DNA from: Elusimicrobiota bacterium
Lineage (GTDB): Bacteria > Elusimicrobiota > Elusimicrobia > UBA1565
Length of the DNA stretch: 21,438 nucleotides
Reading direction: 5' to 3'
Assembly (NCBI GenBank): GCA_043819795.1
Contig: JBDREN010000158.1
Location: 1 to 21,438 of the forward strand
Part shown: in pieces, positions 1,393 through 21,438 of the stretch
Layout of the letters: every line of letters starts with the position of its first letter
How positions within the stretch are numbered: position 1 is the stretch's first letter
Program-made: the position numbers and the translations under genes
The notes under the pieces: model-generated
Seen by the model: the letters and a program-made list of their open reading frames with translations, nothing else
Databases searched by the model: none
What the model was told of the DNA's origin: nothing

Positions 1393-1434
1393 CCTCGCCC
1401 CCTGTCCAAGCGCCCCGGCGCCTGAATCCGAGAT

Positions 1435-1464
1435 AGTGTAGGTCCCGAGTCGCTGACTTTTCAA
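1435..1464 (-). promoter_or_regulatory. Putative sigma70-type promoter of the collagen-like gene
   Basis: Minus strand TTGAAA (1459-1464), 18 nt spacer, TACACT (1435-1440), 42 nt upstream of the ATG and preceded by an AT-rich tract (about 1480-1525). Confidence 0.5.
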
Positions 1465-1897
1465 GGACATCAGATGACTTTGATGCAGAAAAAGAGCTTA
1501 CGGAATAAGCATGAAAAAATTATGTCAGCGAATTGCCCTGGTTCAGCCCAGGGGAATGCTCGCGCGGGCGTGCGGGTGGGCCCCCTCGCGTTCGGGAGGG
1601 CGGTCAGGGCGATTGGCGTCCCGTTCGGTTCAGGGGGTTTCGACCTTATGGAAAGTCCCAGCGGATAAGCATATCGGGCGCGGGATTTCGGGAGGGTATG
1701 CCCCTCGGCCCTCCCGCGCGACTTGAACATGGTGAGGGATTGGTCCCAGGACGGCGTCGCTGGCTTGAGGCTCTGGATGACGAGCGGTCCGCTCATGGTT
1801 TTCTCTCCCGGAAGCGGACCTGCATAGGTAGCGTTCCGGCAGGGGCTTTTGAACGCTATCCGGGTGTGTCGGAAGGTGGGTTTTCCGTCGAGAAATG

Positions 1898-3998: not shown

Positions 3999-4376
3999 TC
4001 AAGCGCGGGCCCTTCGGCGGACAGCCCTCATCCGGGCCAGCAGGTCCTCTGCCTGGAACGGCTTGATGATGAAATCGTCCACCCCGAAGTGGAGGGCCTC
4101 GAGCTCGTCGTCGGCGGTCTGCTTGACCGTCAGCATGATGATCGGGATGTCCTTGTTCTGCTCATCGCGCCGCATCGCCTGGACGCACGCCTGCCCGTCC
4201 ATCCGCGGCATCATCCAATCGACGAGGATCACCTCGGGACGGTACTCCTTGAGCGCGGCCAGTCCCTCCTCCCCGTCGGCCGCGACGCGGACATCGTAGC
4301 CCGCCGCCTCGAGAACGTCCTTGATGATGATCCGGTAATCCTCCTCGTCGTCCACGACCAGCACTTTCGTCGCCAT
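3999..4376 (-). CDS. Single-domain response regulator (receiver only), 125 aa
   Basis: Start moved to MATKVLVVDD with GGAGG upstream. Has the DD acidic pocket, phosphoacceptor DWMMPRMDG, IIMLT and KPF; no output domain. Confidence 0.93.
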   Translation of the reverse strand: MATKVLVVDDEEDYRIIIKDVLEAAGYDVRVAADGEEGLAALKEYRPEVILVDWMMPRMDGQACVQAMRRDEQNKDIPIIMLTVKQTADDELEALHFGVDDFIIKPFQAEDLLARMRAVRRRARA

Positions 4377-4390
4377 GATTCCCTCCGAAA

Positions 4391-5761
4391 TCAGACCATC
4401 CTCAGATTGAACAGAAACTGCGTTCCCTTCCCCGGCTGGGACTTCACGCTGACCTTCCCGCCGTGGGCCTCGACGATCGACTTGACGATGAACAGCCCGA
4501 GGCCGGTCCCCCGGGAGCCCGTCAACCGGGAGTTCGTGTTCTTGCCCTGCTGGAACTTGGAGAAAAGCTTCTTCCTGTCCTCGTCGTCCATCCCGCTGCC
4601 GGTGTCCACGACCGAGACCTCGATGAACTTGCTGCCCTCCTCGCGGTACTGCTCGCCCTGGATCCAGACGTTGCCGCCCTTGGGCGTGAACTTGAGCGAA
4701 TTGGCGATGAGGTTCACGAAGACCTGGCGCAGGCGCTCGGAGTCGCCCTGGACGGGGCCCATCTGCCGGTCCAGGCGGTTGGAGACCGTCACGCCCTGCT
4801 CGCGGCTCTTGGCCTCGAAGAACTGCACGACCTCGCCCGCCACGTTCTGGACCTGGATGGGCTTGAGCGTGCACTCCATCTTCCCGCGCTCGATCTTCGC
4901 CACGTCGAGCAGGTCGCTGATGAAGCCCGAGAGACGCTTCACGTTCGTCTTGATCCGGCCGAAGTACTGCATGAACTGGTCCGGGTTGGTCGGCCGGCCG
5001 CCGACCATCTTGCCCTCCATGAGGTTCAAGAAAGACTCGATCGCGCCCAAAGGCGAGCGCAGCTCGTGCGTCACCGCCGAGATGAAATCCTTCTTCATCA
5101 CGTCCAGCTCCTCGAGCCGCCGCGACATATGGTTGAAGCCGGCCACGAGCTCGCCGACCTCGTCCTTCGACTTCCACTCCAGGCGCACGCCGAGCTTGCC
5201 GCGGCCGATCTCCCCGGCCACTTCGGAGAGGGCCCCGAGCGGGCGGGTGATCTTGCGCGCGAACCAGACCGAGAACAGGATACCGACGAGGAGCGCGATC
5301 CCGAAGAGCCGCATGAGGTCCCGCTGCATACGCGAGACCTCCTCGTCCACCTTGGCCTTGAGGATGCTCTCGTCGATCCCGATGTCGAGGACCACCTGCC
5401 GGCTCTTGTCGGCCGGGTCCACGACCCGAAGCACGCGCGAGCGGACGCTGCCGGTGGTCGCCTTCGCCCCGATATGGTGCGTGCGCGTCCTCTCGCCCGC
5501 GACCCACGTCAGGTTGCAGTAGGTGAGCTCCTCGAACTGGCGCCTGAGGAACTTGACGTAGCTCAAGAGCAGGATGTCGTCGCGCTGCAGAAGGGCGTCG
5601 CTCGCCGCGCGCCGGACCGTGTTCTCGATGATCTGCGTCTTCTCGAGCGTCTCGGCCTTCACGCGCGCCTGCCCCACGCGCACGATGGAGTAGCCGAGCA
5701 TCCCCAACGTGGCCGTGAAGAGCAGCGTCACCGACAGCGTCAGCTTCGTCCGGATGGTCAT
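4391..5761 (-). CDS. Membrane sensor histidine kinase (2 TM, HAMP, HisKA, HATPase_c)
   Basis: Two hydrophobic segments, HAMP (ITRPL...DEVGEL..GFN.M), H-box THELRSPL, N-box QVFVNLIANSLKFT, DTGSG, F-box, GTGLGL. Confidence 0.96.
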   Translation of the reverse strand: MTIRTKLTLSVTLLFTATLGMLGYSIVRVGQARVKAETLEKTQIIENTVRRAASDALLQRDDILLLSYVKFLRRQFEELTYCNLTWVAGERTRTHHIGAKATTGSVRSRVLRVVDPADKSRQVVLDIGIDESILKAKVDEEVSRMQRDLMRLFGIALLVGILFSVWFARKITRPLGALSEVAGEIGRGKLGVRLEWKSKDEVGELVAGFNHMSRRLEELDVMKKDFISAVTHELRSPLGAIESFLNLMEGKMVGGRPTNPDQFMQYFGRIKTNVKRLSGFISDLLDVAKIERGKMECTLKPIQVQNVAGEVVQFFEAKSREQGVTVSNRLDRQMGPVQGDSERLRQVFVNLIANSLKFTPKGGNVWIQGEQYREEGSKFIEVSVVDTGSGMDDEDRKKLFSKFQQGKNTNSRLTGSRGTGLGLFIVKSIVEAHGGKVSVKSQPGKGTQFLFNLRMV

Positions 5762-5813: not shown

Positions 5814-7814
5814 TCACTCTCCCCGCAGGATCTCCGCCTGCACGCGGCTGAGCGCCCTCTGGGCCGACCGGTTCTTCGGATCGACCCGCAGTATCCTCTG
5901 GAACATGTTCGCGGCCTCGCTGAGCCTGCCCTGCGCGTAGAGGTCCACGCCCGCCTCGTAGAGGCGCTGGATCTCGACGGGCGCCACGCGCTTGGCCGCC
6001 GGCTGCACGCGCGGCGTGGGGGCCTTCTTCTTGGCCTCGCCCTCCATGAGCTTCACCAGGGCGTCGATATAGCGGCGGAGCGTCTTGCGCTCCTCGGACT
6101 GGCGCGTGTTCCGGTAGGCCAGGCGCAGGTACTTGAGCGCCTGCGGGTTGTCCTTCTTCGCGTAGTAAGAGGTCGCCGTGCGCTTGAGCGCGAGGGCGTT
6201 GCCGGGGTCGACCTCGAGGACTTCCCCGGCGAGTTTGATCACCTTGTCGTAGGCGCCCTCCCGGAGCGCGACGTCCATGAGCGCCATCCGCGCGCCCACG
6301 ATCTTCTCCTTGCCGAGCGTCGGCGCGGGCCTGTCGGCGGGGACGGGGAGCTCTCGCGCGAGCCCCGCCTTCTGCTCGACGGCCTGCAGGAGCTGCTCGA
6401 CCCGCTCGTCGGCGGGCTGCAGACTCTGGGCGTAGGCCAGCTTGCGCACGGCGCTCTTCTCGCGGCCCGCGATCACGTCCATGATGCCCTCGTAGAGCGC
6501 CGCCTGGCCGGGGTCGGTGCGGAAGTTCTCGAGCGCGGGGAAGATGTCGGCCGCCATCGAGACGCTCTCCAGGCTGCCCTGGATGCTGCGGTCCTTCGGG
6601 TTGAGCCCGAGGGCCTGGTGCAGCTTCTGCTTGGCCTCGGCGAACCGGCCCTCGCCGGTGTCCACCCGCGCCTGCCGCAGGAACTCCTGCTGCGCCGTGC
6701 GCTTGTAGAGCGCCAGCTGCTCGGCCTGGGCCCGGAACTCGGGCGTGCCGATATCGGCCAGCTCGCGGATGTTCTCGAGGATGGCCTCCGCGAACTTCGG
6801 CTCGGCCATGAGCGGGCGCCCGAAGCGGAAGCTCAGGCCCATGCGGTGCGTGCCGAAGGTCGAGTTGATCGTCCCGAGCGGGATCGCGAAGCTGTAGTCC
6901 AGCTGCATCCGGTAGATCCGGTAGGAGATGCCCGCCGTGAACTGCCGGTACTCGCGGTCGCCGACGCCCATCGAGCCGCGGACGCCGAAGGTCCCATGCA
7001 GGAGCGTGGGCAGCCATTTCTCGGCGGCGAGGGTCGCGACCCGGTCCGTCGAGCCGTCCGGGGCCTTGAGGAAGCCCAGCTCCCCGGAGAGGCTCGTCCA
7101 CGGCGTCTGGTACGCCGCGCCGAGCTTGACGTTGCGGCCCAGCTTGTCGGTGTCGTTGTCGGAGAAGGCGATGTTCGGCTCGAGCAGGTGCTGGACCATC
7201 AGGCCCGTCGTGAAGCGCGGGCGCGGGCGGTAGAGCAGCCCGAAGTCGAAGTCCATGTTGCTCTTCGAGCCCTTCTGCAAGACCGGGTCGGGCACGCCCA
7301 GCCGCACGGCGCCGGTATCGCTGAAGGAGTTTTCGGCGGCGTCGGTGCTCCCGACCCCGCGGCTCAGGGACTTGAGCGTCGCCCCGACGTACAGGCCGTG
7401 CGGCGCCTGGTCGGGGAATATGCGCCTCCCGTACGACCCGAGGAGGCTCGACTCGCGGTACAGGCCGCTCAAGGTGAAGTAGTTCCAGGCCATTCCGTAC
7501 GCGCCGTGGCGGCCGTGCTGGATCGGCTTTTCGAACGCGATGAACGAATTCTGGAGGTTCGAATTGTCCGAGAGGCCGGTGAAGAGCCTCGAGTACGTCG
7601 TAGCCAGCTGGGGACGGTCCAGCGTCCCCAGGCCCGCCGGGTTGTAATAGACGGCGTAGACGTCGTCCGCGATGGCGGTGAAGGCATTGCCCATCCCCGT
7701 CACGCGGGCGCCGACCCCGACGTCCTCGTACGCCGCGCGCGTTTCCGGAGTGTAGCAAGCCGCGACGAAGAGTGTCAACAGCGCTGAAATCTTCATGTTT
7801 TTGTTAGATTTCAT
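5814..7814 (-). CDS. PorV/PorP-SprF-like outer-membrane beta-barrel fused to C-terminal TPR repeats, 666 aa
   Basis: Start MKSNKNMKISALL (GAGGT upstream) with signal peptide. GARVTGMGNAFTAIADDVYAVYYNPAGL is the PorV/FadL-like N-terminal signature. Amphipathic strands end in HRMGLSFRFG, followed by TPR-like helices (ALGLNP, VLEVDPGN, ILRVDPKNRSA). Confidence 0.82.
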   Translation of the reverse strand: MKSNKNMKISALLTLFVAACYTPETRAAYEDVGVGARVTGMGNAFTAIADDVYAVYYNPAGLGTLDRPQLATTYSRLFTGLSDNSNLQNSFIAFEKPIQHGRHGAYGMAWNYFTLSGLYRESSLLGSYGRRIFPDQAPHGLYVGATLKSLSRGVGSTDAAENSFSDTGAVRLGVPDPVLQKGSKSNMDFDFGLLYRPRPRFTTGLMVQHLLEPNIAFSDNDTDKLGRNVKLGAAYQTPWTSLSGELGFLKAPDGSTDRVATLAAEKWLPTLLHGTFGVRGSMGVGDREYRQFTAGISYRIYRMQLDYSFAIPLGTINSTFGTHRMGLSFRFGRPLMAEPKFAEAILENIRELADIGTPEFRAQAEQLALYKRTAQQEFLRQARVDTGEGRFAEAKQKLHQALGLNPKDRSIQGSLESVSMAADIFPALENFRTDPGQAALYEGIMDVIAGREKSAVRKLAYAQSLQPADERVEQLLQAVEQKAGLARELPVPADRPAPTLGKEKIVGARMALMDVALREGAYDKVIKLAGEVLEVDPGNALALKRTATSYYAKKDNPQALKYLRLAYRNTRQSEERKTLRRYIDALVKLMEGEAKKKAPTPRVQPAAKRVAPVEIQRLYEAGVDLYAQGRLSEAANMFQRILRVDPKNRSAQRALSRVQAEILRGE

Positions 7815-7819
7815 GGCTA

Positions 7820-8293
7820 TCACCTCACCACCAGCACTGTGCCGGTAACGACGACGTCCTCGGACTTGATCTGGTAGATGTAGACCCCGCCCGAGACCGG
7901 CGTTCCGTTGGAGCGCCCGTCCCAGGTGAGGGCCTCCGTGTTCGGTACCCCCGGCGGCGCGGGCGGGCACTGCGCGATGATCGCCGCTGCGTCCGTGTGG
8001 GCCATGCCGGAGACTTGGTGCCCGCGCAGGTCGAAGACGTCGCCGCTCACCCCCGAGAACCTCGGATTGTCGAAGCACACGATCGCGAGGTCGTTGGCCC
8101 TGTCGCCGTTGGGCGTGATCACGCGCACGAGCGCGCCCAGGAAGTGGAACCCCGCGCCCGCCTGCGCGTTCAGATGCCCCGTCCCCAAAACGGCCCCCAA
8201 GAGCGCCGCCGCGGCGGCCCACAGCGCGACCCACACCTTGCGCCGGGTCCCGCGCTCTGCGAAATTTATGCGAATTTTATTAAGCTTTTTCAT
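7820..8293 (-). CDS. Exported protein consisting only of a T9SS type-B-like (gliding-motility-associated/FlgD-Ig-like) C-terminal domain
   Basis: AAAGGAG RBS and a hydrophobic signal/TM segment. RVITPNGDRAND...VFDLRG...WDGRSNG..VSGGVYIYQI...GTVLVVR is closely similar to the C-terminus of the upstream giant protein. Confidence 0.85.
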   Translation of the reverse strand: MKKLNKIRINFAERGTRRKVWVALWAAAAALLGAVLGTGHLNAQAGAGFHFLGALVRVITPNGDRANDLAIVCFDNPRFSGVSGDVFDLRGHQVSGMAHTDAAAIIAQCPPAPPGVPNTEALTWDGRSNGTPVSGGVYIYQIKSEDVVVTGTVLVVR

Positions 8294-8316: not shown

Positions 8317-11300
8317 TCACCTGGCCACCACGATGGTGCCGTTGAACGTCTTGCCCTCGCCCTTGATCTGGTAGATGTACACGCCGCTCGTCACGACCGT
8401 GCCGTTCATGCGGCCGTCCCACTGCAAAGTGTCGGGCTGTGGCCCGGCGGTCATGGGCGCCACGTACGCGCCGCGCAGGTCGTAGACCTTGCCTTCGACC
8501 GCCGACCCGGCGGGATTGTCGAACAGGAAGATTACCGCGTCGTTCTTGTTGTCGTTGTTCGGCGTGATCACCCGGGTCGTGATGTTCGAAAGGTCGAAGG
8601 TCACGCCCGCGTCCCGCAGTTGGCTCCGGATCTGGAACTTGCCGATGTTCGGCGTCTTGACCGTCAGCGTCTGCTCGGTCTTGTCGATCTTGCCGTAAAG
8701 CTTCTTGTACTCCTTGCCGTTGTTCCAGAACATGCCCAGGTGCGAGGTCTTGCCGTTGGCCTCTTGGGTCCGCATCGTGCCCCGCTGGGCGCGGGCCTGC
8801 TCCAGGCTGTAGGTCCGGGTCTGCGGGACCGGCTGGCCGTTCGCGTCGGTCACGAAGTGCACCTGAATGGACACCGGCTCGGGGAATGCGAAGCTCTTGA
8901 GCTCCTCGCGGCCGCCGAGCATCGGGATGAACTCGATCGCCTGCATGACCTTGCCGCCCGTATCGTCCGGCACGCGCCGGCCGTGGATCAGGATGTCCTC
9001 GTCATAGCCGCTGGTCTCCTGGTTGATCGCGGCGACCGCCTTGGCATCGAGCACGACCTGCGTGACCTCGTCATCGAGGACGATCTGCTGCTGGCCCAGG
9101 GTGGTCACGTAGAGGGTCGCGGTGGAGAAGCCCAGCTGGTTGAACGACCGGACCCGGTAGCGGTACGCCTGGCCGTTGGTGAAGTCGGTGAAGCTGCTCA
9201 CGCCCACGTCCACGGCGCCCCGCAGCGTGAAGCCGGCCCGCGGGTTGGTCGTCCGCGAGATGGTGTAGCCCAAGAGCTCGTCCGCGGTCGGGGTCTTGGT
9301 GCTCACGAAGCGCGTGCCGTCCGCGAACTGCGTGGTCGGCGACCAGCGCACCGTGATGTTCCCGCCTCCGTTGCTCACCTTGAGCCCGAAGACCTCCTGC
9401 GGGACGATCGCGTAGGGCGCCACGCCGATCGAGGCCGAGGGCGCGCTCTCGTTGCCGCCCTTGTCGCGGGCCGCCACGCGGAAGTAGTAGGTCGTGAAGG
9501 CCTTGAGCGGCCTGTCGGTGTAGGACACGCCGGTCGTGGTGGTGACCGTCACGAAGCTCGCGTTGTCGGTCGAGCGCTCCAGGCGGTAGTGGCTGAAGTC
9601 CAGGCCCTTGCCGCCCAGGCCCTCGGGCAGCGCGTTCCAACTGAGCTGCGCCCGGACGAGTCCGGAGACCGCGCTCAGGCCGGTGGGCGTGGCCGGCGCC
9701 TTGTTGCGCGGCAGGGAGAAGGCCTGCTGGCGCGGCGCGGCCGGGTCCGCGCCGAGGTCCACGAATGAGGTCTCGCCCAGCGCGTCGATCGAGCGCACCG
9801 CGAAGTAGAAGGTGGTGAGCGGGTTCAGGCCGCCCACCGTCAGGGTCTCGAGCTGGCCGGGAGCCTTGGCCGGGCTCAGGACCCGCTGGCTCGAGGCCGC
9901 CAGGCTGAACCAGGCCGTGGCGTCGTTGCCCAGCGCGGCCACCGACACGGTCGCGAAGCGCACCTCGTAGCGGGCGATCGGGATGAGGTTCTTGTTCTCC
10001 GGGGCCGTCCACTGGAGCGCGACGTCGCCCTCGGCCGCGCCCTTGAGCGCGGTCAGGTCCGTGATCTGCTCGGGCAGGTTCGGGAAGAAGCTCGCGGCCG
10101 CGTAGTTGTTCACGTTCAGGTTGAGAGCGACGCTCCGCAGCCAGGTCCCGACGTTCGCGACCGGGGCCGAGGAGTCGATGATGCGGATGGCGAAGTAGTA
10201 GGTCGTGAACGGCGTCAGGCCGGTGACGCGCAGGGCCTCGGCCGTCCCGCCCGCCGCCACCGACGGCGCCTGCGACTTACTGAACGCCGACAGAGGCTGG
10301 GCGGCGTTGAAGGCCGCGTCGTCGCCGATGTTGCCGGCCGAGGACATCCGGATCTCGTAGCGCTCGGGCGGGACCGTGCCGGCGCGCAGGGGGGCCGTCC
10401 AGGTCAGGTCGATGGCGCCGGCGCCGCCGTTGGTCACGGCCACGAGGTCCGCCACGCGCGCCACGCCGTTGGCCCGGGCGCCGGCCTGGACGCCCGGCCG
10501 GGCCGGGTCGGCGCCGTCGTCGATCGGCGAGGCCTCGCTCACCGCGTCGTAGGACCGGACCGCGAAGTAGTAGAGCTCGCCGGTCGCCAGGCCGGTGACG
10601 GTCAGCGTTTCGCGGCCGCCGGGCTGCTTGGCCGGGGCCACGACCCGCAGGCCCGCCGCCGCGTTGAACCAGGCCGTCGTGTCGCCGCCGAGCTCGAGCA
10701 CGGAGAAGGTGGCGAAGCGGACCGTGTAGCTCGAGATCGGCACGAAGTTCCGGTTGCGCGGCGCGGTCCAGCTCAGGTCCACCTCGCCCGCCGCCGCGCC
10801 GGTCTGGGCCGTGAGGTCGGTGACCGGGTCGGGCAGCCTGGCCTCGAAGCTGGCGATCGCCGAGTTGTCCACGTTGAGGCCCAGGGCCACGCTGCGCTGC
10901 CATACGCCGGCGTTGGCCACCGGCGCCGAGGAGTCCTCGACCTTGATCGCGAAGTAGTACCGCGTGAACGGCACCAGGCCCTCGACCGTGAGGGTCTCCA
11001 CCGCGCCGCCCGCGCCGACCGCCGGCGCCGCCGTGATGCTCAGCGCGGTCAACGGCAGGGCCGAGGCGAAGGCGGCCTCATCCGCGAAGTTGGCCGCCGA
11101 CGAGATCTTGATCACGTAGCGTTCGGGCAGGGCCGCGCCGGCGCGGTGAGGGGACGTCCAGGTCAGGTCGACCGCGCCGGAGGCGCCGTTGGTCTGCGCC
11201 CTCAGGTCGGTCACGGGCGCCACGCCGGTCGCCCGGGCTTCGGCCTGCGCGCCCGCCTTGGCGGGCTCGGCGCCGTCGTCGATGGGCGAGACGTCGCCCA

Positions 11301-14300
11301 CCGCGTCGAAGGACTTGACGCCGAAGTAGTAGAGGACGCCGGGCTGGAGCCCGCTCACGGTCAGGGTCTCGACGCGGCCGGGCTCGCGGGCCGTGGGCAG
11401 ATGCCGCTCGTTGGCCGCCGCGAGGTTGAACCAGGCCGTGGCGTCGCCGCCCAGCTCGAGCACGGAGAACGTCGCGAACCGGACGGTGTAGCTCGAGATG
11501 GGCACGAAGTTCTGGTTGCGCGGCGCGGTCCAGCTCAGGTCCACCATGCCCGCCAGAGGCCCGGGCTGCGCCGTCACGCCGGTGATCGGATCCGGGATCT
11601 CGCTGACGAAGCTCGGCAGCGCCCAGTTGCCGATGTTGAAGTCGAGGGCGACGCTGCGCAGCCAGCTCCCGGCGTTGGCCAGCGGCGCCGAGGAGTCCTC
11701 CACCCGGATCGCGAAGTAATAGGTGGTGAACGGCGTGGAGAGGCCGGTGACGCACATCGCCGCCGTGGAGCCGCCCACGCCGACCGCCGGCACCGGCGAG
11801 AGGCTCAGCGCGGAGAGCGGCAGGGCCGCGTCGAAGCCCGCGTCATCGGCGATGTTGCCGAGAGTGGAGACCCGGACCGTGTAGGACTCGGGCAGCGTGG
11901 TGGCGGCGCGGTACGGGGCCGTCCAGGCCAGGTCGATGGCGCCCGAGCCGCCGTTCGTCGCGGCCGCGAGGTCCGTGATCCGGGCCACGCCCGTGGCCCG
12001 GGCCCCGGCCTGCGCGCCCGCCCTGAGCGGATCGGAGCCGTCGTCGATGGACGAGGTCTCGCCGATCGCGTCGGCCGACTTCACCGCGAAGTAGTAAAGC
12101 TCGCCGGCCTCGAGGCCGCTGACCGTCAGGGTCTCCACGCCGCCGGGCTCGCGGGCCGGGGCCTGGACGCGCTCGCTCGAGGCCGTGGCCGTGAACCACG
12201 CCGTGGTGTCGCCGCCAAGGTCGGCCACCGAGAAGGTGGCGAAGCGCACCGTGTAGGTCGAGACCGGCACGAAGTTCCGGTTGCGCGGCGCGGTCCAGGT
12301 CAGGTCCACCATGCCCGCCAGAGGCCCGGCCTGCGCCGCCAGGTCGGTGATGGGGTCGGGCAGGTTCGCCTGGAAGCCCGGCACCGCGTCGTTCCCTATA
12401 TTGAAGTTGAGGGCCGCGCTGCGCAGCCAGCTCCCGGTGTTCGCCAGCGGCGCCGAGGAGTCCGCGACCCGCATGGCGAAGTAGTGGGTCGTGAAGGGCG
12501 CCAGGCCGGTGATGGTCACGGACTCGGCCGCGCCGCCCGCGGCCACAACCGGCGGGACCGTCCCGCTGAAGGCGCTCAGCGGCCGGGCCGCGGCGAAGGC
12601 CGCGTCGTCGGCGATGTTGCCGAGCGTGGACACCCTGATCTCGTAGCTCTCGGGCAATACCGTGGCGGCGCGGTAAGGGGCCGTCCAGTTCAGGTCTACC
12701 GAGCCGGAAGTCCCGGCCGCCTGCGCGGCCAGGTCGGTGATCCGCGCCGCGCCGGCGGCCCGGGCCTCGGCCTGGACGCCCGCCTTGGCCGGATCGGCGC
12801 CGTCGTCGATGGGCGAGGTCTCGCCGATCGCGTCGGCCGACTTCACCGCGAAGTAGTAGAACTCGCCGGCCTCGAGGCCGCTGATGGTCAGGGTCTCCCG
12901 ATAGCCGGGCTCGAGCGCCGTGCTCAGCACGCGCTCGCTGGAGGCCGTTGCCGAGAACCAGGCCGTGGTGTCGCCGCCGAGGTCGGTCACGGAGAACGTC
13001 GCGAACCGGACGGTGTAGCTCGAGATGGGCACGTAGTTCCGGTTGCGCGGCGCGGTCCACGACAGGTCCGCCATCCCCGCCAGAGACCCGGTCTGGGCCG
13101 TCAGGTCGGTGACCGGGTCCGGCGGCTTGGGCTGGAAGCTCGGCAGCGCCCAGTTGCTCACGTTCAATCCCAGGGCCGCGCTCCGCGTCCACACGCCCGC
13201 CTTCCTCACCGGCGCCGAGGAGTCCTCCACCCGGACCGCGAAGTAGTGGGTCGTGAAGGGCACCAGGCCGGTGATGGTCACGGACTCGGCCGCGCCGCCC
13301 GCGGCCACGGCCGGCAGGTCCGTCCCGCTGAACGCGGAGAGCGGCTCGGCCGCGGCGAAGGCCGCGTCGTCGGCGATGTTGCCCAGCGTGGACACCTTGA
13401 TCACGTAGGTCTCGGGGAGAACGGTTCCCGCACGTCGCGGGGACGTCCAAGTAAGGTCGATGGCGCCCGAGCCGCCGTTGGTGAGCGCGACGAGGTCGGT
13501 GACGGGGATGATGCCGTTGGCCCGGGCGCGGGCCTGGTCGTCGAGCTTGGCCGGATCGGCCTTGTCGTCGATGGCCGAGACCTCGCTGATCGAGTCGTAG
13601 GACTTGAGCGCGAAGTAGTAGAGCACGCCGGGCTCCAGGCCCGTGACGGTCAGGGTCTCGAGTCCGCCGGGCTCCAGGGCCGGGGCCACGACCACCGAGC
13701 TCGAAGCCGCGTTGAACCAGGCCGTGGTGTCGCCGCCCAGCTCGCTCACCGGGAAGGTGGCGAAGCGGACCGTGTAGCTGGAGACCGGCACGAAGTTCAG
13801 GTTGCGCGGCGCGGTCCAGGCCAGCTCGATGGCGCCCGCAGCGTCGCCGGTGAGCGCGGTCAGGTCGCTGACCGGCTCGGGCGCCCGCGGCGTGAAGGCC
13901 GGGGCCGTCCAGTTGCCCGCGTTGAAGCCGAAGGCCACGTCGCGGCTCCACACGCCCGCCTTCGGCGCCGGCGCGCCGGAGTCCTCGGCGCGGATGGCGA
14001 AGTAGTAGGTGGTGAACGGCGCCAGGCCGGTGACGGTCAGGGTCTCGGCCGCGCCGCCCGCGGCCACGGCCGGCAGAGGCGTCCGGCTGAACGCGGAGAG
14101 CGGCTCGGCCGCGGCGAAGTCCGCGTCGTCCGCGATGTTGCCCGCGGAGGAGGCCTTGATCACGTAGCTCTCGGGCAAAACGATTCCAGCGCGTTGCGGG
14201 GACGTCCAGGTGAGGTCCACCGAGCCGGAGGCGGCGCCGGCCTGCGCGGCCAGGTCCGTGACCGGGATGACGCCGTTGGCCCGGGCCCGGGCCTGGTCCA

Positions 14301-17300
14301 CGACGCCGGCGGCCCGCTCGTCGATCGGCGAGACCTCGCTCACCGCGTCGGTGGACTTGACCGCGAAGTAGTAGAGCACGCCGGGCTCCAGGCCCGTGAC
14401 CGTCAGGGTCTCGAGGTCGCCGGGCTCCAGCGCCGGGGCCACGACCACCGAGCTGGAGGCCGCGTTGAACCAGGCCGTGGTGTCGCCGCCCAGCTCGCCC
14501 ACCGAGAAGGTGGCGAAGCGGACCGTGTAGGTCGCGATGTCCACGAAGTTCTGGTTGCGCGGCGCGGTCCAGGCCAGCTCGATGACGCCCTCGGCCGACC
14601 CGGTCAGGGCGGTCAGGTCGCTCACCGGATCGGGCGGGTTCGGCTGGAACTGCGACGGCGAGGAGTTGTTCACGTTCAGGCCCTGGCCCACGTCCCGCAG
14701 CCAGCGGCCGATCAAGCCCGAAGAGTCCTCGGCGCGGACCGCGAAGTAGTAGGTCTTGAAGGGCACCAGCCCGGTCACGGTCAGGCTGACGGGGACTCCG
14801 CCGGTTCCGACGGCCGGGATCGAGGTGTCGCTGAACGCGTCCAGGGTCTGGGCCGCGTCGAAGGCCGCGTCGTCCGCGATGTTGCCGGTCGTGGACATCT
14901 TGATCACGTAGCCCTCCGGCGGGGTGACGCCGGCGCGGAACGGAGCGGTCCAGGTAAGGTCGATGTCGCCCGGAGCCGAGCCGGCTTGCGCGACCAGGGC
15001 GGTGACGCTCTCGATGCCCTTGGCGTTCGCCCGGACCTGCACGCCGCCCGCCTGGGTGTCGATCGGGCTGGCCTCGCCGGCCCGGTCCTCGGACTTGACC
15101 GCGAAGTAGAACCGGCCGCCGGAAGCCAGGCCGGTCAGGATCAGGCTCTCCTTGGAGCCCGGATCACGGATCTGGGTGACGGCGGCGGAGGAGGCCGCGG
15201 CGAACCAGACGGCCGTGTCGCCGCCCATGTCCACGACCGAGAAGGTGGCGTAGCCCACGTCGTAGCGCACGATCGGCGTGAAGTTCGCGTTCTTCGGCGC
15301 GGTCCAGGCCAGGCCGATCTCGCCCTCCGCGCCGCCCGTGAGCGCGGTCAGGTCCGTGATCGCGTTGGGCAGGTTCGGCACGTGCAGCGGCGCGGTGGAG
15401 TTGTACACGTTGACGTTCTGCCCCACGTTGCGCCGCCACTCGCTGACCTCCGGCGGGGTCTTGGAGTCGAGCTCGCGGATCGCGAAGTAGTAGGTCACGG
15501 TCGGCGTCAGGCCGTTGACCACGAAGGAGCGCGCCCCGCCGCTTCCGGGCGTGGGGAGGGTGGACGGGCTGAACGCGCTCAGAGGCTGGGCCGCGTCGAA
15601 GTCCGCGTCGTTCTCGATGTTGGCGGCGCTCGACACCCTGATGTCGTAGGACAGCGGCGGCGCGAGCCCGATATTCTGGGGCTCGGTCCACTCGAGCCGG
15701 ACGCTGGCGATCGTGTCGCCCGTGTTGGCGACCAGGTTCTGGATGGGCGGGATCGGCTTGGGCCGCGACCGGACCTGGTTGATCACGCTGGCCGCCTGGA
15801 GGTCCTCGGCGGAGACCGCGCCCGTGATGTCCACGGACTTGACCGCGGCGTAGTACGTCAGGGCGCCGTTGAGCCCGGGGACGACCAGCGTCACGAAGGC
15901 GCCCGGGGCCTCCGCGGCCGGAGCCATGGTCGTCGAGTCGGCCAGGCTGAACCAGTTGCCGAGCTGCTCCTCGGGGCTGCCGCCCGGCATGTCGGAGACG
16001 CTCTTGGTGTTGACCTTGACCAGGTAGTGGTCGATGGGCACCCCATTGGTGTTCTCCGGGGCGGTCCATCTGAGCTCCAGGTCGCCCACGAGCCATCCCT
16101 GCAGGGCCGTAAGGTCCAGGATGCGCTCGGGGTCGCGCAGCTCGAAGTAGGCGGTGGCGTAGGCCTGGCCGGGCGGCACGAGGGGGTCCGCCGGCTCGTC
16201 TATCGGCGAGATCTCTCCGGTCCGGTCTATGGACTTGATTCCTACATAGTAGACCATGCCGGGCACCAGGCCGGTGACCGTCACGGTCTCGAGGCTGCCG
16301 GGCTCCAGCGCCGGGTAAGCGACGCGGGATGTCGAGACGGCCGCGTTGAACCAGGCCGTGGAGTCGCCTCCCAGCTCGGCCACCGAGAAGCTGGCGAGGC
16401 GGATGTCGTAGCCGTTGATCGGCACGAAGTTCTCGTTGCGCGGGGCCGTCCACGCCAGGTCGATCGTCCCCGGCAAGGAGCCGATCAGCGCGGTGAGATC
16501 GGTGATCGCGTTCGGCGGGCCGGGCGCGAAGGCCGCGGCCGCGAAGTTGCCGGCGTTCAGGCCCCTGCCCGCGTCGCGCTGCCAGAGGCCCGCCCGCGCG
16601 CTCGGCAGGGAGGAATCCTCGACCCGGATGGCGAAGTAGTAGGTCACGCTCGGGATCAGGTCGATGACGGTCAGGCCCTCGATGGCGCCGCCCGCGGCCA
16701 CGGGCGGGACCGACGTGGCAGGGCTGAAGACGCTGAGGTCCTGGGCGGCCTCGAACTCGGCGTCGTCGCTTATGTTGGTGAAAGACGATGCCTTGATCAC
16801 GTAGCGAAGCGGCGGCGTGAGCGCGCCGGTGCGCAGCGGCGAGGTCCAGGACAGGCTGACGGCGGCGTCCTGGAAGGCGTGGGTCGCCGCCACGAGGTTC
16901 GTGACCGGGGCGATGCCTTCCGGCACCGCGAAGTTGGACTCGTTGACGCCGGTCTCCACGACCCACCGGCCCTCGAACCGCGGCGCGCCGGAGTCCACGG
17001 CGCGGACCGCGAAGTAGTAGGTGACGCTGGAGGCCAGGCCCGTGATGGCAAGGGACTCGGCCGCATCCTGGCCGCCCACGACCGGGACCGGCGAGCCGGA
17101 GAAGATCGTCAGAGGCTCGGCGGCCTCGAAGGCGGCGTTGTCCGCGATCTGGCCGCTCGTGGAGGCCCGCACCTCGTAAGAGAGCGGCGCCGTTTCGCTC
17201 TGGCGCCTCGGGGTGGTCCACGCGAGGTCGATCTCGCCGTCCTGAGCGCCGGCCTGGGCCGCGAGGTCCGTGATCCCGGCGATGCCGGCCGCAAACTCCC

Positions 17301-20082
17301 TGTCCTGCTGGCCCGGCTGGCCGGGATCGGCCTTGGTGTCGACGGGCGAGGTCAAGCCCGCGTCGTCGGTGCTCTTGACGGCGAAGTAGTAGAGCAGCGT
17401 GGGCTCGAGGCCGGTGATGGTCAAAGTCTCCGGGCTGCCCGGAGGCAGGGCCTGGGCCAGCACGCGCTGGCTCGAGGCCGTGGCCGTCCACCAGGCCTCG
17501 GCGTCCCCGCCGGACCCGGTGACCGAGAAGGTGGCGAAGCGCACCGTGTAGCTGGAGATGGCCGCGAAGTTCTGGTTGCGCGGGGCCGTCCAGCTCAGGT
17601 CGATCTCGCCCTCGCCCGAGCCCGGCAGGGAGGTGAGGTCGGTGATCGCCTCCGGCAGCGAGAGCACGAAGAACGGCGTGGTGGAGTTGTTCACGTTGAA
17701 GAGCGCGTCCACCGTCCAGGCCCCGAAGAGGCCCGCGCTGTCCTCGACCCGGACCGCGAAGTAATGGGTGGCCGCCGGGTTGAGCTCGCTGAGCGTGACG
17801 ATCACCCGCTCGCCGCCCGCGCCCAGGGCGGGGGCCGTCGTGGCGCTGAACGCGGAGAGCGGCTGGGCCGCGTCGAACTCGGCGTCGCCCGTGATGTTCG
17901 CGGTCGTGGAGACCTTGATCACGTAGGCCTCGGGCAAAGTCGCGGCGGCCCGGTACGGCGCGGTCCACTCGAGCTCGATGTCGCCCGCGCTCGAGCCCTG
18001 GCGCGCCGCCAGGTCGGTCACTCCCTCGATGCCCCTGGGCCGCGCCCGGACCTGCGCGCCTCCGGCCTGGGTGTCCAGCGGGCTGACCTCCTCGGCGCGG
18101 TCGATGGACCGGACGGCGATGAAGTAGAGCCTGCCGGGCTCGAGGCCGGTCAGGGTCAAGGTCTCCAAGGAGCCGGGATCGCGCGCCTGGCCCAGGCCGC
18201 TGGAGTAGGCCACGTTGAACCAGGCCATGGTGTCTCCGCCCAGGTCGGCCACGGAGAAGGTGGCGAAGCCGACTTCGTAGCGGTCTATGGGAGCGAAGTT
18301 CAGGTTGCGCGGCGCGGTCCAGGCCAGGTCGAGCTCGCCCTCGGCCGAGCCGGTCAGGGCCGTCAAGTCCGTGACCGGTTCGGGATCGTTGGGGATCAGC
18401 TTCGGCAAGGCGAAGTTCGTGGTGTTCTTGTTGAGCGCCGGATTGCGGTCCCACGCGCTCACGTCCGGAGGATCGTTGGAGTCCTGATGCCGGATGGCGA
18501 AGTAGTATTTCACGGTCGGGATCAGGCCCGACACCGTGAAGGTTCTCGCCCCGCCGCTTCCGTGCGCGGGCAGCGAGGAGCTGGTGAAGGCCGTCAGCGG
18601 CAGGGCGGCCCCGAAGTCCGCGTCGTTCTCGATGTTCGAAACCGTCGACGCGCGGAATTCATAGCTCAACGGCAGCACCAGGTTCGCGTCCGAGGGCTCG
18701 GTCCACTCGAGCTTGATGCTGGCGATCTGCGCGCCGGTGGTCGCCGTCAGATTGGATATGGCCGGGATCGGCCGCGGCCGCGACTTGGCCTGGGTCAGCA
18801 CGCCGGCCGCCTGGTCGTCGACGTCCGAGACCCGGTCGGTGACGTCCACGGACCGGACCGCCACGTAGTAGCTCAAGGCGCCGTTGAGCCCGGGGACCTC
18901 GACCGTCACGTCCGTGCCCGGGGTCCGGCCGGACACCACCACCTCGGTGGAGTCCGCCAGGTCGAACCAGGCGTAGGGGTCGAAGCCGGTGTCCACGATG
19001 GTCCGGGTGTTGATCTTCACGATATAGCGGTCGATGGGCACGCCGTTCTGGTTGGCCGGCGCGGTCCACGTCAGCCTGAGCGCGCTCACCTCGGTCCCCC
19101 GCAGGGCCGAGAGGTTGGTGACCGGGTCCGGATCGCCCGGCTCGTACAGCGCCTGGGCGAAGTTCGTGGCGTTGAGGCCGAGGGCCGCGTTCCGCTCCCA
19201 GGTCCCGTCCATCCCGAAGCCGAAGGAATCGCTGGCCCGCGCCGCGAAGTAGTACGTCACGCCCGGGGTCAGGCCCGCCACGTTCATCGATTCCAAGGTT
19301 CCGGACGAGCCCACGACCGGCGGAGCCGAGACCGTGAAGGCCGTCAGCGGCTTGGCCGCGTCGAAGTCCGCGTCGCTCGCGATCTGGCCGGTCGAGGAGA
19401 CCCGGATCACGTAGGCCGTATTGGGCTCGCTATTCCCGATCCGGTTCGGGGCGGTCCAGGCGAGGTCCACTTCGCCGACCGACACGCCGGTCGCGCCGAT
19501 GAGGTCCGTGATCCCGGCGATGCCTTTGACATCCACGTACGCCTGGTTGCTCACCGACCTGGCGTTGTCGTCCAGGTCGGAGGTATTGCCGTTGTCGTCG
19601 GTGCTCTTGAGCCCGAAGTAGTACCTGATCGCGGGATCGAGCTCGGTCAGGATGCTCTGCGGGTTTCCGGGCGCCAGCGCGGGCGGCGGCCCCGTAAACA
19701 GCGTCGCCGCCTGGAACCAGGCGGTGGTGTCCCCGCCCAGGTCGGATATGCTGAACGTCGCGTAGCGGACCGTATAGGACGACACCGCCAGGGTGCTCGG
19801 CTCCAGGAGCCCCATGTCCTCTATGGGAGCGGTCCACTGCAGGTAGACCTGCCGCTCGAGCCCGCTCGGGATGCCCACCAGGTCCGCGACCGGGACCGGC
19901 GGGAAGGAGTCCCTGATCCGGATCGTGAAGGTGACGCTGTCGCCGTTGTTGGACGGATCGGCGTTGGCGATGGCAAAGCGGGCGAGCGCGGCGCCCGCGG
20001 CGGCCAACAGGCCGCCCAGGGCCAGCGCTTTGAGCGCCGCCGTCCACGTGCCGTAGCGTTTCACGACCTTATCGAGACTCAT
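8317..20082 (-). CDS. Giant secreted multi-fibronectin-type-III-like repeat protein with T9SS type-B-like CTD, 3921 aa
   Basis: Signal peptide ending AIA. 27 repeats with P.PVTDL...L.WT(A/S/E/T)P...Y...GL.P...YYFA(V/I) plus two further FN3-like domains, then an unrelated beta domain and the CTD TPNNDNKND...YDLRG...WDG...SGVYIYQI...GTIVVAR. Uninterrupted 11.8-kb frame. Confidence 0.93.
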   Translation of the reverse strand: MSLDKVVKRYGTWTAALKALALGGLLAAAGAALARFAIANADPSNNGDSVTFTIRIRDSFPPVPVADLVGIPSGLERQVYLQWTAPIEDMGLLEPSTLAVSSYTVRYATFSISDLGGDTTAWFQAATLFTGPPPALAPGNPQSILTELDPAIRYYFGLKSTDDNGNTSDLDDNARSVSNQAYVDVKGIAGITDLIGATGVSVGEVDLAWTAPNRIGNSEPNTAYVIRVSSTGQIASDADFDAAKPLTAFTVSAPPVVGSSGTLESMNVAGLTPGVTYYFAARASDSFGFGMDGTWERNAALGLNATNFAQALYEPGDPDPVTNLSALRGTEVSALRLTWTAPANQNGVPIDRYIVKINTRTIVDTGFDPYAWFDLADSTEVVVSGRTPGTDVTVEVPGLNGALSYYVAVRSVDVTDRVSDVDDQAAGVLTQAKSRPRPIPAISNLTATTGAQIASIKLEWTEPSDANLVLPLSYEFRASTVSNIENDADFGAALPLTAFTSSSLPAHGSGGARTFTVSGLIPTVKYYFAIRHQDSNDPPDVSAWDRNPALNKNTTNFALPKLIPNDPEPVTDLTALTGSAEGELDLAWTAPRNLNFAPIDRYEVGFATFSVADLGGDTMAWFNVAYSSGLGQARDPGSLETLTLTGLEPGRLYFIAVRSIDRAEEVSPLDTQAGGAQVRARPRGIEGVTDLAARQGSSAGDIELEWTAPYRAAATLPEAYVIKVSTTANITGDAEFDAAQPLSAFSATTAPALGAGGERVIVTLSELNPAATHYFAVRVEDSAGLFGAWTVDALFNVNNSTTPFFVLSLPEAITDLTSLPGSGEGEIDLSWTAPRNQNFAAISSYTVRFATFSVTGSGGDAEAWWTATASSQRVLAQALPPGSPETLTITGLEPTLLYYFAVKSTDDAGLTSPVDTKADPGQPGQQDREFAAGIAGITDLAAQAGAQDGEIDLAWTTPRRQSETAPLSYEVRASTSGQIADNAAFEAAEPLTIFSGSPVPVVGGQDAAESLAITGLASSVTYYFAVRAVDSGAPRFEGRWVVETGVNESNFAVPEGIAPVTNLVAATHAFQDAAVSLSWTSPLRTGALTPPLRYVIKASSFTNISDDAEFEAAQDLSVFSPATSVPPVAAGGAIEGLTVIDLIPSVTYYFAIRVEDSSLPSARAGLWQRDAGRGLNAGNFAAAAFAPGPPNAITDLTALIGSLPGTIDLAWTAPRNENFVPINGYDIRLASFSVAELGGDSTAWFNAAVSTSRVAYPALEPGSLETVTVTGLVPGMVYYVGIKSIDRTGEISPIDEPADPLVPPGQAYATAYFELRDPERILDLTALQGWLVGDLELRWTAPENTNGVPIDHYLVKVNTKSVSDMPGGSPEEQLGNWFSLADSTTMAPAAEAPGAFVTLVVPGLNGALTYYAAVKSVDITGAVSAEDLQAASVINQVRSRPKPIPPIQNLVANTGDTIASVRLEWTEPQNIGLAPPLSYDIRVSSAANIENDADFDAAQPLSAFSPSTLPTPGSGGARSFVVNGLTPTVTYYFAIRELDSKTPPEVSEWRRNVGQNVNVYNSTAPLHVPNLPNAITDLTALTGGAEGEIGLAWTAPKNANFTPIVRYDVGYATFSVVDMGGDTAVWFAAASSAAVTQIRDPGSKESLILTGLASGGRFYFAVKSEDRAGEASPIDTQAGGVQVRANAKGIESVTALVAQAGSAPGDIDLTWTAPFRAGVTPPEGYVIKMSTTGNIADDAAFDAAQTLDAFSDTSIPAVGTGGVPVSLTVTGLVPFKTYYFAVRAEDSSGLIGRWLRDVGQGLNVNNSSPSQFQPNPPDPVSDLTALTGSAEGVIELAWTAPRNQNFVDIATYTVRFATFSVGELGGDTTAWFNAASSSVVVAPALEPGDLETLTVTGLEPGVLYYFAVKSTDAVSEVSPIDERAAGVVDQARARANGVIPVTDLAAQAGAASGSVDLTWTSPQRAGIVLPESYVIKASSAGNIADDADFAAAEPLSAFSRTPLPAVAAGGAAETLTVTGLAPFTTYYFAIRAEDSGAPAPKAGVWSRDVAFGFNAGNWTAPAFTPRAPEPVSDLTALTGDAAGAIELAWTAPRNLNFVPVSSYTVRFATFPVSELGGDTTAWFNAASSSVVVAPALEPGGLETLTVTGLEPGVLYYFALKSYDSISEVSAIDDKADPAKLDDQARARANGIIPVTDLVALTNGGSGAIDLTWTSPRRAGTVLPETYVIKVSTLGNIADDAAFAAAEPLSAFSGTDLPAVAAGGAAESVTITGLVPFTTHYFAVRVEDSSAPVRKAGVWTRSAALGLNVSNWALPSFQPKPPDPVTDLTAQTGSLAGMADLSWTAPRNRNYVPISSYTVRFATFSVTDLGGDTTAWFSATASSERVLSTALEPGYRETLTISGLEAGEFYYFAVKSADAIGETSPIDDGADPAKAGVQAEARAAGAARITDLAAQAAGTSGSVDLNWTAPYRAATVLPESYEIRVSTLGNIADDAAFAAARPLSAFSGTVPPVVAAGGAAESVTITGLAPFTTHYFAMRVADSSAPLANTGSWLRSAALNFNIGNDAVPGFQANLPDPITDLAAQAGPLAGMVDLTWTAPRNRNFVPVSTYTVRFATFSVADLGGDTTAWFTATASSERVQAPAREPGGVETLTVSGLEAGELYYFAVKSADAIGETSSIDDGSDPLRAGAQAGARATGVARITDLAAATNGGSGAIDLAWTAPYRAATTLPESYTVRVSTLGNIADDAGFDAALPLSALSLSPVPAVGVGGSTAAMCVTGLSTPFTTYYFAIRVEDSSAPLANAGSWLRSVALDFNIGNWALPSFVSEIPDPITGVTAQPGPLAGMVDLSWTAPRNQNFVPISSYTVRFATFSVLELGGDATAWFNLAAANERHLPTAREPGRVETLTVSGLQPGVLYYFGVKSFDAVGDVSPIDDGAEPAKAGAQAEARATGVAPVTDLRAQTNGASGAVDLTWTSPHRAGAALPERYVIKISSAANFADEAAFASALPLTALSITAAPAVGAGGAVETLTVEGLVPFTRYYFAIKVEDSSAPVANAGVWQRSVALGLNVDNSAIASFEARLPDPVTDLTAQTGAAAGEVDLSWTAPRNRNFVPISSYTVRFATFSVLELGGDTTAWFNAAAGLRVVAPAKQPGGRETLTVTGLATGELYYFAVRSYDAVSEASPIDDGADPARPGVQAGARANGVARVADLVAVTNGGAGAIDLTWTAPLRAGTVPPERYEIRMSSAGNIGDDAAFNAAQPLSAFSKSQAPSVAAGGTAEALRVTGLTPFTTYYFAIRIIDSSAPVANVGTWLRSVALNLNVNNYAAASFFPNLPEQITDLTALKGAAEGDVALQWTAPENKNLIPIARYEVRFATVSVAALGNDATAWFSLAASSQRVLSPAKAPGQLETLTVGGLNPLTTFYFAVRSIDALGETSFVDLGADPAAPRQQAFSLPRNKAPATPTGLSAVSGLVRAQLSWNALPEGLGGKGLDFSHYRLERSTDNASFVTVTTTTGVSYTDRPLKAFTTYYFRVAARDKGGNESAPSASIGVAPYAIVPQEVFGLKVSNGGGNITVRWSPTTQFADGTRFVSTKTPTADELLGYTISRTTNPRAGFTLRGAVDVGVSSFTDFTNGQAYRYRVRSFNQLGFSTATLYVTTLGQQQIVLDDEVTQVVLDAKAVAAINQETSGYDEDILIHGRRVPDDTGGKVMQAIEFIPMLGGREELKSFAFPEPVSIQVHFVTDANGQPVPQTRTYSLEQARAQRGTMRTQEANGKTSHLGMFWNNGKEYKKLYGKIDKTEQTLTVKTPNIGKFQIRSQLRDAGVTFDLSNITTRVITPNNDNKNDAVIFLFDNPAGSAVEGKVYDLRGAYVAPMTAGPQPDTLQWDGRMNGTVVTSGVYIYQIKGEGKTFNGTIVVAR
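9710..19900 (-). repeat. Tandem array of alternating A-type and B-type FN3-like repeats (~750-765 bp per A+B pair); boundaries approximate
   Basis: 14 A repeats (RFATFSV..LGGDTTAWF) and 13 B repeats (GNIADDAAF.AA.PLSAFS), counted from the WTxP motifs. Confidence 0.9.
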
Positions 20083-20189
20083 TCTCCGTCAACCCTTCAC
20101 GAACCCTCCGGGTACGGTCTCCGGATACGGCTCATCCTCCTTCTCCGTCGTTTCACGCGTGCTCGCCTGCGTCACGGAGCGGACCCGGG

Positions 20190-20327
20190 TCCCTCCCCGG
20201 GGGGATATCCTCCCCCCGGGAAAGGGACAAGGCCGCAGGGGCTCGATGTCAGCCCGCGCTGTTCTCACGCGCCCCTCGCTTCATGACGCTCTTCGTCGGC
20301 GGACATATCGTCCTCCGCCACACCCCC
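20190..20327 (-). repeat. Conserved structured intergenic element, copy A (3' of the pilin-like gene)
   Basis: Shares ordered blocks with 21292-21432: CCCGGGGGGA/TCCCCCCGGGAAAG hairpin, CAAGGCC(G/A)CAGGGGCTC, TCTCACGCGCCCCTCG..TCATGACGCTCT and GGCGGAC. Confidence 0.85.
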
Positions 20328-20963
20328 TTACGACGCGTCCGCCGCCGTCAGGGTGAATGTCACGTTCTGGTCCGACGCCGTGCTCGTCCAGTTCGGCAGC
20401 CGGAAGAACAGCCACATATGCACCTGGTCGTTCGGCGCCTTGTTGTCCATATCTACCGTATCCGTCTGCCACTCGTACTTCGTGCCGTCTCCGCTATTGC
20501 TGCCCGCACGCTGCGTGCCGCTGATGTAGCTCGCCGCGGCCGTTACGTCCGCGAAGTCGGCCGCGCCCGGAGCCGCGGAGGTCCACGGCGTATCGCCGAA
20601 GAGTACGTACGCGGCCAGCTTGTCCGTCTCGCCGCTCGTCTGGTCCGTCGTCGGTGACGCGTCGAACGTCCAGGGGGTGCCCCCCGACGTGATGGCGCCG
20701 GTCAGGTCCAGTTCCTGGCCCGAGAGCGTGCCCAGGATCGTCACCGTCGCGGGCGACACGGTCTGCGTGGACGCGTACAGGTCCAGCGATCCCAAGTTCA
20801 ACACCACGGTCGCCGTGTCGATCTCGACCCCGCGGTCGATATTCGGCGTGATCGTGATGATGACCTGATCCGTGTCGTTGGTCAGATTAGCGTCCGCCCA
20901 CACGTTGCCCGCGTATCCCAACATCAGCCCCATCAGGGCTATCGCTGCCCACGTCTTCTTCAT
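20328..20963 (-). CDS. Secreted beta-rich protein, putative pilin/fibre subunit (TasA-like pattern), 211 aa
   Basis: AGGAGG 7 nt before MKKTWAAIALMGLMLGYAGNVWA (signal peptide). The mature part is Thr/Asp-rich with alternating-hydrophobic strands and ends MWLFFRLP...DQNVTFTLTA. The coding call is strong; the pilin function is inference. Confidence 0.8.
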   Translation of the reverse strand: MKKTWAAIALMGLMLGYAGNVWADANLTNDTDQVIITITPNIDRGVEIDTATVVLNLGSLDLYASTQTVSPATVTILGTLSGQELDLTGAITSGGTPWTFDASPTTDQTSGETDKLAAYVLFGDTPWTSAAPGAADFADVTAAASYISGTQRAGSNSGDGTKYEWQTDTVDMDNKAPNDQVHMWLFFRLPNWTSTASDQNVTFTLTAADAS

Positions 20964-20984: not shown

Positions 20985-21291
20985 ATTCCCCGGTTTGTCT
21001 GTTCCGCCGGCTTTCGCCGGCGCGTTCGTCCTCGTGCCGGCCGGGGTAGTCCCCGCGCCGGCTCGCTTCACCGTCATATCCTTCACGCCGGCCTTGACCG
21101 GCTCGTTCTCTGTGCGCCTGGTCAGGTTATCGCCCATACCGTTCCCTCCGAGTCATGTCCGTCCCGCCGCGCGGCCTCACCGCGCCGCCGGCGCATCGCA
21201 TCGTCAAATCGGTCATATCACCCGCATCTCATCATCCGTCCGCGCCTCCGTCCCGGGGCATTCCGCCCCGCCGGTCCCCGCGAGCCCGCGC

Positions 21292-21432
21292 CCCTTTCCC
21301 GGGGGGAACCGAATCCCCCCGGGAAAGCAGGCAAGGCCACAGGGGCTCAGGCAGAAAGCACATCGCTCTCACGCGCCCCTCGTCTCATGACGCTCTCCTC
21401 TGGCGGACCCATCGAGCCACCGGTCCACCGCC
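21292..21432 (-). repeat. Conserved structured intergenic element, copy B (3' of the upstream gene, 5' of the pilin-like gene)
   Basis: Same blocks as copy A, with a perfect 13-bp stem TTTCCCGGGGGGA (21295-21307) / TCCCCCCGGGAAA (21314-21326). Confidence 0.85.
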
Positions 21433-21438
21433 TTACGA
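21433..21438 (-). CDS. Probable 3' end (Ser-stop) of an upstream gene cut by the window edge
   Basis: TCG TAA on the minus strand sits at the same position relative to element B as the TCG TAA ending the pilin-like gene sits relative to element A. Only 6 nt are visible. Confidence 0.4.
   Translation of the reverse strand, partial: S

Follow-up and report, generated by a model that had tools for sequence, protein, structure and literature searches.

A probable usher-less donor-strand pilus with a strand-only, T9SS-tailed base in Elusimicrobiota

We use sequence comparison, profile searches and structure prediction to study two adjacent genes in a 21,438-nucleotide stretch of DNA (the window), which is the entire contig C158 of an Elusimicrobiota genome (4.99 Mb in 241 contigs, 90.3% complete). 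One gene (20328..20963, minus strand) encodes a small secreted protein of 211 amino acids including a 23-residue leader, our candidate shaft pilin or subunit. The other (8317..20082, minus strand) encodes a giant secreted protein of 3,921 amino acids, built from a leader, a short strand, a stalk of fibronectin type III-like (FN3-like) repeats and a tail of the T9SS (type IX secretion system) type. Sequence classes, gene order, strand co-variation and predicted folds together point to a chaperone-assisted donor-strand pilus that works without an usher and consists of a tip, a shaft and a strand-only base with a T9SS-type tail, a reading to which we give a probability of about three in four. Most likely, the giant caps the fibre at its base and uses T9SS-like parts, in place of the usual pilus pore, to fasten it to the outer membrane. 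An earlier reading of the letters alone (the original prediction) had proposed that the giant caps or anchors a filament of the small protein, and our analysis supports it. Below, G000 denotes the source genome and C numbers its contigs, other G numbers denote genomes and L numbers locus stretches; related loci were compared over 40 stretches drawn from 30 genomes, and phylum-wide profile searches covered 201 Elusimicrobiota genomes.

The two proteins are connected by a strand that sits directly behind a hydrophobic, signal-like leader in each. The subunit reads DANLTNDTDQVIITITP (20844-20894, minus strand), ending in the one invariant proline of its family, and the giant reads NADPSNNGDSVTFTIRI at residues 40-56 (19915-19965, minus strand). 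As originally described, they align without a gap and are identical at 6 of 17 positions; the leader cleavage sites are judged by eye, and an alternative cut in the giant lies two residues later, after ANA. We compared the giant with the subunit family as a whole using a strand profile of 12 columns (the residues before the proline) made from 83 relatives with the window protein excluded. Among 1,847 signal-bearing open reading frames (ORFs) that serve as background, the giant ranks third with 19.1 bits, behind two intact subunits (29.5 and 26.4); the next ORF scores 13.0, and the set has a mean of -9.6 and a standard deviation of 5.7. This is a strong match, and the giant's strand is also identical at 8 of 17 positions to three members of the family and, again at 8 of 17, to a subunit paralogue on contig C185. 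Within the giant the strand precedes only the first of 27 FN3-like repeats (9649..19902, minus strand; 118-132 amino acids each, with approximate boundaries; PF00041, E 1.7e-140), with scores of at most -3.4 for the other repeats, as the original prediction of a strand standing alone before the first repeat has it. Genome-wide, 14 of 1,401,680 segments in 3,083 gene-like ORFs score at least 19.1, and the 11 others lie at least 239 residues inside four other proteins, mostly large repeat proteins. Strands of this type are therefore common, and what is rare is the position at the mature N-terminus. In G000:C121:29046-33227 (-) and other large repeat ORFs, internal strands equal the donor strand in score, and the donor strand may resemble the last strand of Ig-like repeats.

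The giant's counterparts at related loci are about 430 to 1,400 residues long, and its size, given as a feature in the original prediction, is thus incidental. On 24 of these counterparts the strand profile gives a mean of 3.3, with 16 above zero, and on co-encoded secreted proteins it gives -14.3 for barrel N-termini and -9.9 for chaperone N-termini; the profile test suggested at the outset thus marks most of the counterparts and neither barrels nor chaperones. The low-scoring counterparts stem from lineages whose subunits have drifted, and both strands drift jointly, as in the pairs ASWGDSFNITFTP with ANWGDSFTVTLTP, GNPDDLSLTVTI with VNPDTLTLTVSI, ALTEDLVLRV with ATEDLILTV, and ATKSIEIHVR with ASKNIAIHVR. 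Over 25 loci the cognate strand score is 23.5, compared with 13.9±1.2 for permuted partners, and 0 of 20,000 permutations reach it. As a control, the adjacent signal peptides of the same loci show no link to the local partner, and the fact that the strand, unlike its neighbouring signal peptide, tracks the local subunit speaks against simple copying of 5' gene ends. Grouping by kin gives p<=0.001 with 12 clusters and, with 5 clusters, a median of 0.016 and a worst value of 0.19. Loci L058 and L060, noticed later, fit as well. The strand thus persists in orthologous gene pairs, where it follows the changes of the local subunit; a lack of conservation there would have refuted the original prediction.

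The subunit profile has matches in 48 of the 201 genomes, and these fall into two classes: small ORFs matched from the leader onwards and large ORFs matched only past the strand. In the large proteins the subunit domain stands at the extreme C-terminus and lacks the strand in 19 of 19 cases, while the 43 small proteins mostly have it. Donor-strand logic predicts three classes of protein, and three are found: strand plus body, body only, and strand only. They recur in the gene order tip, chaperone, subunit or subunits, protein with strand, FN3 repeats and C-terminal domain (CTD), and barrel. Near-identical subunit genes stand in tandem, seven in G092 and three each in G177 and G064. The payloads of the tips are varied (FG-GAP, SBBP propeller, FN3), and in the search output of several genomes tip-class genes outnumber subunit genes. 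A candidate tip of the source genome, G000:C59:1-1866 (+) (L002), is an FN3 protein cut by the contig end whose C-terminal subunit domain is strand-less (E 1.2e-9, with the match beginning at profile position 16). The 343-residue protein of L067:7760-8788 (+) has an extra N-terminal domain, a strand-like segment and then the subunit domain, with no Pfam match, and is possibly a subunit that carries a payload on the shaft.

At E<=0.001 the search for relatives of the subunit yields 108, and what these conserve best at the N-terminus is D-S-L-T-I-T-I-T-P directly behind the leader, with the pattern L/I-T-I/V-T-I before a proline (P17) that is invariant in 83 of 83. Neither the subunit nor its relatives could be assigned to a known family in Pfam; among the matches listed for the 83 members (25 of 35 families at E<=1), no family has more than two members, and a sequence comparison of the subunit with solved chains gave no match. 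The AlphaFold2 monomer is a beta-sandwich (predicted local distance difference test score, pLDDT, 91.4) in which residues 8-20 lie outside any sheet and the N-terminal strand is unpaired, with pLDDT 90 for residues 11-20. In the model the N-terminal strand thus takes no part in the protein's own sheet; a monomer completed by that strand would have refuted the original prediction. The model has the hallmark of donor-strand filaments, a beta-sandwich that is incomplete and from which the N-terminal strand protrudes. Such filaments are the top matches in a fold comparison, at weak Z, and the best Foldseek match is TasA (8aur, E 1.3e-4). The TasA system has a dedicated SipW peptidase. The subunit leaders here are of the ordinary AxA type. 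A longer ORF call for the subunit, beginning at 21137, has an unlikely start.

The absence of a chaperone gene noted in the original prediction holds for the window, and a candidate lies beyond it. This secreted PapD/WxLIP-like protein, our chaperone candidate, is encoded on contig C185, an apparent neighbour of C158: contig C185 ends within a subunit paralogue whose 5' DNA is 83% identical to that of the window subunit over 115 bases. There are two copies, 79% identical, at G000:C185:248-1132 (-) (L001) and G000:C223:16083-17102 (-), the latter with no subunit gene matched nearby. Those of the source genome carry no CTD tail, and at the C-terminus of chaperone candidates there is a beta-strand and no hydrophobic membrane helix. 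The chaperone profile matches in 52 of the 201 genomes, 44 of which are among the 48 that are subunit-positive. Neither profile has a match in two large families whose genomes are small (0/58 and 0/63), which hints at a free-living trait. One-domain versions stand directly behind tip genes (L047:4858-5379, L049:2913-3386, L051:1118-1666, L053:2860-3387, L058:15594-16028 and others) and are possibly tip-specific chaperones. At L067:9747-10997 (+) a chaperone-like domain is fused to a CTD-bearing C-terminus, an arrangement that bears on possible subunit export.

The tail of the giant (8320..8607, minus strand) scores 26.1 bits on TIGR04183 (cut-off 23), 25.8 on TIGR04131 (cut-off 35) and 22.5 on PF13585 (cut-off 27); two counterparts reach 27.0 and 26.6 on TIGR04183. 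The type B model stays below cut-off. With a Sec leader and a C-terminal sorting domain, the giant has both marks of a T9SS cargo. Downstream of it lies an outer-membrane barrel of the PorP/SprF family with C-terminal tetratricopeptide repeats (TPRs; 5814..7814, minus strand; PF11751 50.6 bits, cut-off 22.3), the candidate dock of the tail; a barrel cluster occurs in the stretches of 23 of the 30 genomes. We found no match to the usher families PF00577 or PF15976 in the source genome, 90.3% complete, with positive controls, although a very divergent usher could escape; nor is there an usher-like cluster common to at least four of the 30 genomes' stretches. PorV (PF19572) has six matches above cut-off in the source genome. 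A SprA-like ORF of 1,889 amino acids, G000:C134:12856-18522 (+), ends in Phe and matches in three pieces at E 1e-13 to 2e-15, below cut-off; its homologues, which occur in 178 of the 201 genomes, are all below cut-off too. GldN, the component of the GldKLMN motor that was searched for, and SprA_N gave no match, but their controls were silent as well; the SprA-like ORF is possibly a motor-less or differently powered T9SS-like translocon.

Drawing our intuition from the Elr, chaperone-usher and TasA systems, we infer strand exchange, chaperone action, an order of assembly and docking, and with them the binding of strand to groove and the fibre itself. All parts would be routed through Sec. The small protein would fold as an incomplete beta-sandwich with its N-terminal strand free, and the soluble two-domain PapD-like protein would hold each subunit until its groove is filled by the strand of the next one. 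The tip would be a large protein, resembling an adhesin or an enzyme, with a terminal strand-less subunit domain, which can accept only; the tandem small subunits, which donate and accept, would form the shaft; and the giant, with a strand but no groove, would plug the last subunit and so stop further addition. Its T9SS-type tail would be handled by the SprA-like translocon and dock on the co-encoded PorP/PorV-like barrel, while the FN3 repeats would keep the fibre off the surface. A more detailed route, which we offer tentatively and regard as somewhat unlikely, has the fibre built tip-first in the periplasm by the soluble PapD-like chaperone and closed by the strand-only base, after which the tail of the base would draw tip, shaft and stalk through the SprA-like translocon and park them on its own barrel. 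Type IX-like secretion would then replace the usher, one tail would export many tail-less proteins, and the strand changes of base and shaft would form a lineage- and locus-specific plug code.

Several observations limit the case for the pilus reading. Taken alone, the pairwise match between the two window strands is modest: at least six identities to the small 17-mer occur in the post-leader region of 14 of the 1,847 background ORFs, 11 of them unrelated, which is within the reach of chance. The window pair is also among the weaker cognates (rank 7.5 of 25 cross-locus pairs), kin among the 25 loci are not independent, and their strand starts were picked by eye. Chance-level identity, together with the similar strands inside other repeat proteins, would suit a beta-strand of a kind generic to extracellular proteins, or else a 5' gene module that both genes share. 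The strand would then pair with the first domain of the giant itself or be a common processing signal, and the two proteins would not bind each other. The giant's other repeats, the tips and the co-encoded secreted barrels and chaperones all lack such a strand, however, and across lineages it varies with the local subunit while adjacent signal peptides do not, so we consider this explanation very improbable.

Two further alternatives keep strand exchange and change what it builds. The giant could be a TapA-like initiator, a tail-anchored protein that reaches the surface first and seeds a fibre growing outwards from separately exported subunits, instead of a terminator added last. TasA is the subunit's best Foldseek match, initiation of the TasA fibre involves donation of the TapA N-terminus to TasA according to PMC10151520, no usher was found that would force a tip-first order, and the fusion of a chaperone-like domain to a CTD at L067 hints at export of chaperone-bound subunits. 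Yet 44 of the 48 subunit-positive genomes have a dedicated PapD-like protein, and this, like the strand-less tips, fits better with the way chaperone-usher and Elr pili are assembled, with the tip first and the base last. The source genome's own chaperone candidates have no tail; we think seeding unlikely. Still less likely, in our view, is a short defined complex with no long fibre, in which a tip and a single subunit, or a small number of them, would be a modular means of attaching interchangeable enzymes or adhesins to a stalk anchored through T9SS. The excess of tip-class genes in several genomes, the variety of tip payloads and a stalk that is already 27 repeats long would fit it, but tandem near-identical subunit genes in other genomes and the hairpin behind each subunit gene here suggest a high subunit-to-anchor ratio, and a strand plus body in every subunit permits open-ended polymers.

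The closest precedent for the pilus that we propose is the Elr/WxL pilus of Enterococcus faecalis (ElrA-E). The preprint of Sleutel et al. (bioRxiv 10.64898/2026.10.17.759780) reports it, and usher-less chaperone-guided strand exchange with it, as confined to Bacillota, and describes a chaperone with a C-terminal membrane helix and a strand-only base, ElrB, with LPxTG for sortase. The original prediction invoked PapH; ElrB is the nearer example. By that account both systems have the same four roles, a strand-only base and a tip with a C-terminal strand-less pilin domain, whereas in our case outer-membrane barrels are present in the host, the chaperone candidate has no membrane helix, the base has FN3 repeats and a T9SS-type tail beside a PorP/PorV-like barrel instead of LPxTG, and the strand pattern is D-S-L-T-I-T-I-T-P rather than [S/T]-x-[G/A]-x-[V/I]-x-F. 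WxL (PF13731) is not among the 25 of 35 families listed at E<=1 for the 83 subunit members, and Atlas gives it just as a lead (0.81, 12% of members). Among 18 chaperone candidates, PF06030 matches two (best E 0.064) and PF11797 none, although their predicted fold is close to that of the WxL chaperone. The tests for PF13731, PF06030/PF11797, membrane helix and LPxTG rule out membership in WxL/Elr pili, and the system is one that works like Elr and chaperone-usher pili without belonging to them. Chaperone-usher pili (the alternate class with CFA/I CfaB, CS17, CS20 and CooA; type 1, P and Csu) differ in that we find no usher match, a terminator without a pilin body and no sequence-level match. 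TasA-TapA of Bacillus subtilis (PMC10151520) resembles our system in subunit fold and in an accessory protein that donates only an N-terminal strand, and differs in being a Gram-positive matrix fibre that has neither a PapD-like chaperone nor a tip class nor a barrel. A protein with a T9SS CTD is also part of the Mfa1 type V pilus of Porphyromonas gingivalis (PMC8512630). This protein, Mfa5, sits at the tip, whereas the one with the CTD in our system is predicted to form the base; gingipain matures type V pilins from lipoprotein precursors and Mfa2/FimB anchors them, unlike our subunits, which have ordinary AxA leaders.

We found no paper on such a system in Elusimicrobiota in the open-access literature. 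Bacillota have no outer membrane to cross; in Elusimicrobiota, a phylum with outer-membrane barrels, we see this four-part logic in 48 of the 201 genomes, tied to T9SS-like parts. If true, our reading would add a new class of pilus, give a role to many unexplained large proteins in a phylum described as rich in huge ones (PMC11573180), and raise the question of how subunits that have no tail pass the outer membrane when there is no usher.

Named homologues of the window proteins are mostly from Elusimicrobiota. On the minus strand the window carries, in order, the last codon of an upstream gene, the 211-residue subunit, the giant, a 157-residue CTD-like protein, the PorP/SprF barrel that carries TPRs, a histidine kinase and, last, a response regulator. 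The upstream gene is a tandem paralogue of the subunit, represented by its last codon and stop (21433-21438) and a 3' region with a hairpin (21277..21438, minus strand) that is repeated 1,104 bases away behind the window subunit gene. The GC-rich hairpins behind each subunit gene (20191-20225 and 21294-21327), with no T-run terminator call on that strand, may serve a high subunit-to-anchor ratio. The CTD-like protein (7820..8293, minus strand) is hardly more than that domain (PF13585, E 1.6e-4, below cut-off) and is present in many related loci; small CTD-only proteins also stand beside PorP-like barrels at G000:C66:3-350 and C172:9006-9665 and may plug or chaperone the barrels. The HAMP histidine kinase (4391-5761) and the response regulator after it (together 3999..5761, minus strand) are called from domain matches, and their clusters occur in the stretches of 21 and 14 of the 30 genomes. 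A membrane protein with TPRs at L049:3278-5221 (+) matches the PF15971 mannosyltransferase at E 0.004, below cut-off; its cluster is in 9 of 30 genomes' stretches, a similar protein lies at L002:8878-11532 (-), and it may glycosylate the Thr-rich subunits. At the far end of the window, a collagen-like secreted protein (649-1470, minus strand; PF01391) lies between two similar tRNA-like stretches, at about 200-300 and 1900-1980.

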